Shown here in pieces: positions 16,165 to 16,942 of a stretch of 64,000 nucleotides of DNA. Source of the DNA: Escherichia phage vB_Eco_T-01; the sequence record PQ438391.1; one strand, given 5' to 3'. Within the stretch, counting starts at the first letter, position 1, and every line of letters starts with the position of its first letter. The position numbers and the translations under genes are program-made. The notes beneath the pieces were generated by a model, which saw only the letters and a list, made by a program, of their open reading frames with translations, was not told where the DNA came from and ran no database searches.

Positions 16165-16246
16165 CATACAAGTAATATAAATCTATACTTAGGAAAAATA
16201 GATGATTCTAGGTCCTGTAAATTCATTAAAAATTTTTTCACAAAAC

Positions 16247-16300
16247 TGTTTACAAGACTGTTCTTCCATGGTACTATACAACTATCAACTACTGATACAG
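16247..16300 (+). repeat. promoter-leader cassette copy (early promoter plus conserved leader CAACTATCAACTACTGATACAG)
   Basis: Shares TGTTTACAAGACTGTTCTTCC[A/G]TGGTACTAT with 43945..43975 and the leader with 35499..35520 and 47119..47140. Confidence 0.7.
16248..16277 (+). promoter_or_regulatory. T4-type early promoter (GTTTAC ... TGGTACTAT), part of a recurring promoter-leader cassette
   Basis: 18-bp spacer; near-identical copy at 43946..43975. Confidence 0.6.
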
Positions 16301-16314
16301 ATTTGGAGAATAAA

Positions 16315-16551
16315 ATGAAAATTGTTATGGGATGCTTAGCAGTTTGTTTAGTTGCATTAGCAGCAGTTCCATTTGTTAGTGTTGAAAATGATACTCAACC
16401 TGTGATTGAATCTAGCACCGTTATTCACACTAATGGTAAAATATCAGTTAAAATTGATGATAATCTTCATGTGAATACAAATGGATCTTTAGGTGTGCAA
16501 ATGGGTAATACCTGCATAAGCACTACTGGAGTAATTACTACTTGCATTTGA
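16315..16551 (+). CDS. hypothetical secreted or membrane-anchored protein
   Basis: ATG at 16315 after the promoter-leader cassette; hydrophobic N-terminus MKIVMGCLAVCLVALAAVPFVSV; Cys in C-terminal part. Confidence 0.5.
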   Translation: MKIVMGCLAVCLVALAAVPFVSVENDTQPVIESSTVIHTNGKISVKIDDNLHVNTNGSLGVQMGNTCISTTGVITTCI

Positions 16552-16561
16552 GGAAATTATT

Positions 16562-16942
16562 ATGAAAATCGCTATTTTGGTTATTGCATTAGGTCTTACT
16601 GGTTGTGTAGCTCAAGGACCGGTAGTAAATCAGTCTGATGTAGGAAAAATTGTAAACTGTTCAAGCAAATTTTATAATCCTAATGTCAAGTGTTATAAAG
16701 AAGCTCCAAAGCAAACAGTAGAACAAATGCAGGCGAATTTTGACGAAGCTATTCGTCCAGATAAATCTGCTCAAGCATATCGTAATTCGGATGTAATTAC
16801 ACGCGAAGAAAAAATTGAAAACTACTGCGCCGAGCTTTGGGCTAATTGGGCTAATAATTACCAATGGCGTACTGGTAAAAATGCTCCGATGGAGTATGTA
16901 GTGAATTCTTATAATTCATGTGTAAAAAATTTGACTAAGTGA
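16562..16942 (+). CDS. putative lipoprotein
   Basis: 126-aa ORF; signal peptide with lipobox-like LTGC; several Cys in the mature part. Confidence 0.55.
   Translation: MKIAILVIALGLTGCVAQGPVVNQSDVGKIVNCSSKFYNPNVKCYKEAPKQTVEQMQANFDEAIRPDKSAQAYRNSDVITREEKIENYCAELWANWANNYQWRTGKNAPMEYVVNSYNSCVKNLTK

Follow-up and report, generated by a model that had tools for sequence, protein, structure and literature searches.

Two small open reading frames (ORFs) lie between the DNA polymerase gene 43 and the superinfection immunity gene imm in Escherichia phage vB_Eco_T-01 (PQ438391.1). The window, i.e., the complete 64,000-nucleotide (nt) stretch that was analyzed, stems from a close T4 relative in the genus Tequatrovirus, and the 820 bases 3' of gene 43 are 97-98.7% identical to those of hundreds of Tequatrovirus genomes. 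The gene order on the plus strand is 62, regA, 43, ORF1, ORF2, imm, a 49-amino-acid (aa) ORF, 42, a T2/T6-type glucosyltransferase gene and uvsX. ORF1 ('orfA') occupies positions 16315..16551 (plus strand) and encodes 78 aa followed by a stop codon, and ORF2 occupies positions 16562..16942 (plus strand) and encodes a predicted lipoprotein precursor of 126 aa. An earlier sequence-only reading of this DNA had located both ORFs at exactly these positions and had given the correct length for ORF2, while its 79 aa for ORF1 is one too many. Both are real genes and not chance ORFs, because ORF2 matches the Pfam family DUF5481 (PF17578) with 237.1 bits (cut-off 27) over model positions 1-103 of 103, and because ORF1 matches phrog_4189 over the full profile length (E = 4e-30) and its alleles show a ratio of non-synonymous to synonymous substitution rates (dN/dS) of 0.18-0.37.

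ORF2, which also falls into phrog_1754, is almost certainly the imm.1 gene of phage T4. The T4 protein (NP_049661) is 98% identical and its gene has the same position and strand between 43 and imm, the order in the T4 reference being 43, imm.1, imm, 42. The statement in the sequence-only reading that imm closely follows gene 43 in T4 therefore does not hold for this gene. The two loci have promoter, leader and neighbours in common. They differ in that ORF1 is absent from T4, that T4 Imm.1 carries LAGC where the window protein has LTGC and that the window protein is one residue longer at the C-terminus. A tblastn search detected imm.1 in 656 phage records, 501 of them at ≥95% identity (Tequatrovirus) and 155 at about 33% identity (Mosigvirus); identity over about 500 Tequatrovirus records amounts to 96-99%. 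Exhaustive HMMER searching of 1.8 billion representative proteins returned only six DUF5481 clusters, which indicates that the family is small and confined to T4-like phages. A word-indexed protein search yielded three clusters and a profile search eight. One published comparison counts Imm.1, as a marker of the T4 group, among the 182 core genes of this group; a role in exclusion was assumed there and stated as still to be proven (PMC5885020). The family is thus named but functionally unstudied, and we found no functional study of imm.1 or DUF5481 in the literature. The RefSeq product name for T4 imm.1 (NC_000866, 26636-27013) is 'iduronate sulfatase', and this name has spread to other phage records. 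We rejected this assignment, as Pfam and NCBIfam scans at permissive E-values revealed no sulfatase family and the protein comprises only 126 aa. The family PF14373 (Imm_superinfect) matched the downstream gene only and neither ORF1 nor ORF2. A search of the window revealed no paralogues of the two ORFs, searches of PDB sequences with profiles of both families returned noise only, and PADLOC and NCBIfam profile scans of both ORFs gave nothing meaningful. No fold or sequence match points to a function of either protein. Neither has a known cytoplasmic function, in keeping with the exported proteins that the sequence-only reading had expected.

The N-terminus of ORF2, MKIAILVIALGLTGC, combines a lysine at position 2, an uncharged hydrophobic region (IAILVIALG) and the lipobox LTGC with Cys15. 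It passes the pattern and both rules of PROSITE entry PS00013, which we take to be a lipobox [LVI][ASTVI][GAS]C with the cysteine at 15-35, a positively charged n-region and an uncharged h-region. The relatives P0019, P0020 and P0021 and those from Mosigvirus pass as well, at 32-38% identity and with LVGC, LTGC or TTGC as the lipobox. Altogether, the lipobox is kept in four of the six diverged lineages. P0018 and P0022 carry instead a signal of the signal peptidase I type with AHA preceding the cleavage point, and would for this reason lose the lipid anchor while keeping the periplasmic destination. Beyond Cys15, ORF2 contains C33, C44, C89 and C120. In the relatives, C89 and C120 are invariant, and C33 and C44 are either both present or both absent, a pairing pattern as expected for periplasmic disulfides. 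The residue at position +2 is valine in ORF2 and V, A, G, Q or S in the relatives, never D. Since the E. coli sorting rule predicts outer-membrane sorting for lipoproteins with no aspartate at +2, an outer-membrane location is predicted for Imm.1. Taken together, ORF2 is very probably an exported lipoprotein; export is a strong prediction and not a demonstration. In an AlphaFold2 (AF2) model of Imm.1 with a predicted local distance difference test score (pLDDT) of 66, only the C-terminal helical hairpin comprising residues 81-125 is confident (pLDDT about 90), and it holds both invariant cysteines. The most conserved element of the protein, N-x5-YNP-x2-K-x-Y, lies within the Cys33-Cys44 loop in Tequatrovirus. 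An o-spanin was considered and rejected: the gene lies among 43, imm and 42 and is served by an early-type promoter, the mature part is predicted to be helical with two cysteine pairs, and an i-spanin partner is lacking.

The most informative result is the linkage of imm.1 to imm. In each lineage that could be placed on a contig, imm.1 resides 7-61 nt upstream of imm (PF14373). The gene preceding the pair is gene 43 in L004, L005 and L011 and a gene of the FRD3 family in L013. In Mosigvirus APCEc01, imm.1 and imm are found in another genome region, after dmd and with their own TTTACA-17-TACTAT promoter, and spackle follows directly 3' of the pair. The coordinates in phage SHSML-52-1 match this Mosigvirus arrangement. 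Of the functions suggested in the sequence-only reading, namely superinfection exclusion, receptor masking or envelope modification, this linkage favours a role related to Imm for ORF2, and receptor masking is disfavoured. A lipoprotein gene for 146-149 aa is also located between 43 and imm in Jiaodavirus (Mineola, Roth01), Gelderlandvirus (STP4-a) and Moonvirus (NM4.3) (L015, 984-1472; L017, 1011-1454; L022, 737-1177; L024, 726-1169). Besides the cysteine of the lipobox, which reads LTGC or LAGC, each encoded protein has just two cysteines, and the second lies within a few residues of the C-terminal end; one protein bears the annotation 'Conotoxin'.

ORF1 is preceded by a Shine-Dalgarno (SD) sequence, GGAG, 7 nt upstream of its ATG. 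A 142-aa version starting from TTG was discarded, as it has no SD sequence and hundreds of records annotate the ATG start. The only family matched is phrog_4189; there is no Pfam match. Its database family consists of 14 clusters, all Tequatrovirus-like, with members 77-100% identical to ORF1, and the gene is present in 325 phage records, again all Tequatrovirus-like, compared with 501 that carry a near-identical imm.1. Among ORF1 alleles dN is about ten times that of imm.1, and imm does not show any amino-acid change. ORF1 is a real gene under purifying selection. Its N-terminus, MKIVMGCLAVCLVALAAVPF, reaches a maximal Kyte-Doolittle score of 2.81 over 15 residues and features a lysine at position 2, an 18-residue hydrophobic core (residues 3-20), ALA followed by A at 14-16 and then the acidic VSVEND. 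The core measures 18 to about 30 residues in different alleles and fits a cleaved signal and an anchor alike. The orientation of this segment probably puts the C-terminal part outside the cytoplasm. The impression of the sequence-only reading that both N-termini look export-like is supported, with a genuine lipobox in ORF2 that is conserved in diverged relatives, and the multiple cysteines it had noted in the exported parts are present in both proteins: C67 and C77 in the predicted exported part of ORF1, which has C7 and C11 within the hydrophobic segment, and the four downstream of Cys15 in ORF2. A lipoprotein-type signal applies to ORF2 and not to ORF1, as the window allele of ORF1 lacks the PS00013 pattern and its cysteines at positions 7 and 11 come too early in the sequence for a canonical lipoprotein.

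The DNA for the hydrophobic core (16327-16365, ORF1 codons 5-17) is internally repetitive (CLAV / CLVA / LAAV), and an apparent internal 'terminator' at 16351 was dismissed as this repetitive coding DNA. Core length changes between alleles through tandem duplications of 7 aa (21 nt). In the HY01-type allele (P0011), such a duplication creates LAAC with Cys18, and this is the only ORF1 allele that passes PS00013. The UniRef label 'Lipoprotein' on HY01_0043 is explained by the lipobox that this duplication makes. The label therefore suits the HY01-type allele only, in contrast to the window allele without a rule-passing lipobox. The AF2 model of ORF1 (pLDDT 61) consists of an N-terminal helix and six short strands, and its residues 40-70 score about 75. 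The strands are predicted for the C-terminal 45 residues, whose end is formed by the nearly invariant GNTC-x9-C-I. ORF1 may accordingly be described as a putative small beta-rich protein, either secreted or N-terminally anchored.

Gene 43 (898 aa, plus strand) ends at 16130 and is followed by an intrinsic terminator at 16143-16160 (listed element to 16168, plus strand), which consists of the hairpin AGGGACC-UCCG-GGUCCCU and a T-run. The 7-bp stem is rich in G+C (-13.9 kcal/mol, z = -2.9 versus shuffles). The terminator is kept in T4, and the annotation of phage NR1 names a terminator here. The T4-type early promoter, its leader and the GGAG SD sequence span 16228..16314 on the plus strand, with an A/T tract upstream. 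The promoter proper (16249-16277) is composed of TTTACA (16249-16254), a 17-nt spacer with an extended -10 TG and TACTAT (16272-16277). In T4, the promoter-leader is identical and drives imm.1 directly. The promoter with its leader of about 35 nt is a repeated cassette, with four other window copies near 35488, 43441, 43947 and 47089; the five copies extend over 16228-16301, 35488-35543, 43441-43484, 43945-43975 and 47068-47141. They are built from an A/T tract, GTTTACA, a 17-nt spacer, TGGTACTATA and the conserved leader CAACTATCAACTAC, and the leader occurs in two variants ending in CTGATACAG and CGGAGGAAC. Two of these copies, at 16249 and 47089, stand behind a strong terminator hairpin, such that a second composite of terminator and promoter is found at 47035-47117. 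The arrangement given in the sequence-only reading, a terminator after gene 43 followed by a separate early promoter and leader, thus proved right.

The same holds true for the notion that the two ORFs are transcribed from their own promoter: the window sequence contains no terminator between 16160 and gene 42, and ORF1 and ORF2 are predicted to be co-transcribed with imm. At each junction from ORF1 through ORF2, imm and the 49-aa ORF to gene 42, the upstream stop codon lies within the next SD sequence (TGAGG...) or over the next start codon (ATGA), which suggests a translationally coupled early operon. The SD sequence of ORF2, GAGGA, overlaps the ORF1 stop codon, and the imm.1 stop codon TGA sits inside the SD sequence of imm (TGAGGA). 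The imm gene (16950..17201, plus strand) encodes an 83-aa superinfection immunity membrane protein (PF14373, 58 bits). The 49-aa hydrophobic ORF (phrog_3610; 17198..17347, plus strand) has two hydrophobic segments. It begins inside the imm stop codon (ATGA) and closes the series of small envelope-protein genes in the operon ahead of gene 42. Both genes thus follow directly downstream, as had been noted before. The 49-aa ORF is intact in T4 (99% DNA identity), but neither NC_000866 nor AF158101 annotates it, so that a 153-nt 'gap' separates imm from 42 in these records. Comparable tiny ORFs occur 3' of imm in L013, slur07 and Gaprivervirus RZ. Gene 42 is followed at 18086-18934 by a gene for a 282-aa beta-glucosyl-HMC-alpha-glucosyltransferase of the TAGT family (phrog_842) and of T2/T6 type. 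At this position the window phage therefore possesses a DNA glucosylation set resembling that of T2/T6. T4 has beta-gt and then segA in this place.

The slot between the early promoter and imm.1 occurs in three states in Tequatroviruses. It contains ORF1, as in the window, or it is empty, as in T4 (L001), RB14 (L018) and pSs-1 (L019), where promoter, leader and SD sequence run straight into imm.1 at the same junction, or it contains an unrelated 83-aa ORF, RB51ncORF048c, as in RB51 (L020, 275-526). The RB51 protein has no hydrophobic segment, and its gene follows a leader variant that is also present at two other cassette copies of the window. The T4-type junction lies inside ATGAAAAT, the first eight bases of ORF1 and imm.1 alike, and the break points of the slot are the conserved promoter-leader and the start of imm.1. 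Comparison of the 43-imm interval thus supports only half of the proposal in the sequence-only reading that, compared with T4, the two genes look like an accessory insertion. ORF1 is indeed accessory, being absent from T4, RB14 and pSs-1 and replaced in RB51, but ORF2 as the T4 imm.1 gene belongs to the T4-group core (PMC5885020). In Shigella phage CT01 (L009, 600-1450), a 5' imm.1 fragment, an ORF1 fragment, part of the promoter-leader and a complete imm.1 are found together. This rearranged locus looks like the product of recombination between cassette copies. On the basis of the three slot states and the scrambled CT01 locus, the slot is a small exchange site beside a repeated terminator and early-promoter unit.

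Composites of a terminator and an early promoter drive modular shuffling in T4-type phages (PMC2839356). The PeSL cassettes described by Arbiol et al. (2010) and Comeau et al. (2014) likewise combine a strong sigma-70-like early promoter with a terminator stem-loop, and the window cassette resembles them in being repeated in the genome and in lying at the edge of a gene-content polymorphism. It agrees with the definition of PeSLs in PMC2839356. PeSLs have been defined in RB49/phi1 and other distant T4-like phages, where they have consensus sequences of their own. Unlike in PeSLs, hairpin and promoter are about 90 nt apart in the window, and of the two break points the upstream one alone falls at the cassette.

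How Imm blocks the entry of DNA has been unclear since the work of the 1970s to 1990s. Imm and Spackle are the two known exclusion proteins of T4, Spackle being a disulfide-bonded, periplasmic protein (PMC7677548), and the action of Imm is still described as poorly understood (PMC6832632). From the data presented here we infer, as the best reading, that Imm is partnered in superinfection exclusion by Imm.1, a lipoprotein that faces the periplasm. Imm.1 would leave the cytoplasm through Sec, receive its lipid at Cys15 and be processed by signal peptidase II. As it lacks an aspartate at +2, Lol would deliver it to the outer membrane, on whose inner leaflet it may present to the periplasm a flexible N-terminal stretch with the YNP motif and a C-terminal hairpin clamped by a Cys89-Cys120 bond. 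There it could work with inner-membrane Imm, alongside periplasmic Spackle, against a superinfecting T-even phage, the target being the tail tip or the DNA crossing the envelope; alternatively, it could limit phage-caused damage. The chances of this explanation as a whole, including the proposed function, fall just short of even. The statement that Imm.1 acts in the exclusion or envelope-protection pathway of Imm is tentative and to be placed a little lower still. A more far-reaching picture, in which outer-membrane Imm.1 and inner-membrane Imm form a trans-envelope module that carries T-even 'immunity' and is joined by Spackle in Mosigvirus, in which the YNP loop contacts the incoming tail tip or the injection site and in which ORF1 is an accessory that varies between strains and adjusts the range of competitors kept out, is rather unlikely.

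Spackle offers a close comparison. It is small, early, Sec-exported, helical, disulfide-bonded and periplasmic (PMC7677548), as is predicted for Imm.1, and in Mosigvirus its gene adjoins the imm.1-imm pair. Unlike the predicted Imm.1, it is soluble and not lipidated, and we detected no similarity between the two proteins in sequence or fold. T4 Spackle (gp61.3) differs further in having a known target, the gp5 tail lysozyme, which it inhibits.

Several observations speak against Imm.1 as a partner of Imm. In Dhakavirus JS98 and Gaprivervirus RZ, imm follows directly after 43 and the lipoprotein gene is missing, and Imm was found in 1001 phage records compared with 656 for imm.1. Lu and Henning are said to have observed in 1989 that plasmid-borne imm alone excludes T4; if this is so, Imm.1 is not strictly required. 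Furthermore, mature DUF5481 matches the lipoproteins of Jiaodavirus, Gelderlandvirus and Moonvirus weakly once signal peptides are left out (hhalign 53%, 19 columns), and these proteins may best be regarded as positional analogues and possible remote homologues, not as family members. Genes in compact phage operons can also be neighbours because their products have timing or targeting, and not function, in common. With regard to ORF1, the cleavage site ALA-A is a motif match only. Any inference from adjacency is weakened by the variable content of its slot, which is vacant in T4 and RB14 and filled in RB51 by an ORF that is not hydrophobic.

Imm.1 might instead be an envelope protein independent of Imm, with the genes adjacent only since both products are early and targeted to the envelope. 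During infection it could stabilize or remodel the outer membrane and peptidoglycan, adjust lysis inhibition or the time of lysis, block an enzyme of the host periplasm or act against a host defence located in the envelope. Such a role would agree with the occurrence of Imm without Imm.1 in Dhakavirus, Gaprivervirus and non-T4-like phages, where unrelated genes lie upstream of the Imm homologues. It would also agree with an operon that groups four envelope proteins of unrelated sequence and with the lack of any homology suggesting a specific activity. However, imm.1 and imm are adjacent in at least three upstream contexts and at about 33% identity, the Mosigvirus pair adjoins the other exclusion gene, spackle, and small phage genes without a common function seldom stay linked so persistently. 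We consider an Imm-independent role the main alternative, albeit a rather unlikely one. Far less probable is masking of a receptor by one or both proteins. The known Tequatrovirus receptors differ and include OmpC/LPS (lipopolysaccharide), Tsx, FadL, OmpF and OmpA. Receptor masking is exemplified by Llp of T5 and Cor of phi80, N15 and T1, small phage-encoded outer-membrane lipoproteins on the periplasmic side that are expressed early or in lysogens and that bind the receptor FhuA and block adsorption; Llp is disulfide-bonded (PMC9586334). Imm.1 as a small, early, predicted disulfide-bonded outer-membrane lipoprotein has an Llp-like make-up, and the fast-evolving, strain-variable ORF1 behaves as a receptor-specific factor might. 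Imm.1 is, however, 96-99% identical throughout Tequatrovirus in spite of the different receptors, and secondary T-even phages still adsorb to infected cells, where they trigger lysis inhibition (PMC6832632). These two points render masking unlikely; T-even exclusion leaves adsorption unblocked. Neither ORF resembles any solved structure in sequence, Llp included, and no homology of ORF1 or ORF2 to Llp or Cor was found by sequence or fold.

ORF1 itself may be a lineage-restricted ORFan that travels with cassette shuffling at a promoter hotspot, without any link to Imm and with at most a marginal or conditional function, and the prospects of this explanation are not far from even. It accounts for the three-state slot with its break points at the promoter-leader and the imm.1 start, for the scrambled CT01 locus, for the second terminator-promoter composite in the window, for the tiny Tequatrovirus-like family and for a hydrophobic segment that accepts 7-aa tandem expansions. 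It is less easily reconciled with an ORF that is intact in 325 records under the purifying selection described above, that keeps its C-terminal GNTC-x9-C-I nearly invariant and that has a strong SD sequence as well as a stop codon overlapping the SD sequence of imm.1. The evidence gives little reason to tie ORF1 to Imm, because the slot elsewhere holds an unrelated ORF or nothing, and we regard it as quite improbable that ORF1 is an exclusion factor. The idea that the ORFs are cytoplasmic or non-coding and that their hydrophobic N-termini are fortuitous is close to refuted: relatives with as little as about 32% identity retain a lipobox or an AXA-type signal, the cysteines covary pairwise, and both ORFs are under purifying selection and annotated as coding sequences in hundreds of genomes.

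Both genes are already annotated as hypothetical in hundreds of genomes, one of them is a named T4 gene, and phage-encoded lipoproteins of the envelope are familiar neighbours of exclusion genes. In this respect, the findings are not very surprising. What may be new is the explicit case for imm.1-imm as a conserved module, together with the three-state slot before imm.1. On the practical side, the RefSeq name for T4 imm.1 is misleading, T4 has an intact 49-aa ORF 3' of imm that is unannotated, and the gap between 43 and imm.1 is a small natural site of cassette exchange. The lipoprotein gene imm.1, which has remained next to imm in different T-even genera and despite genome rearrangement, provides a concrete candidate for a partner of Imm, and to our knowledge nobody has tested it as such. 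If Imm.1 acts in exclusion, it would join the phage exclusion lipoproteins already known as a new, non-homologous member and would offer a way into the mechanism of Imm. T-even exclusion would then have one component for each layer of the envelope: outer membrane, periplasm and inner membrane.

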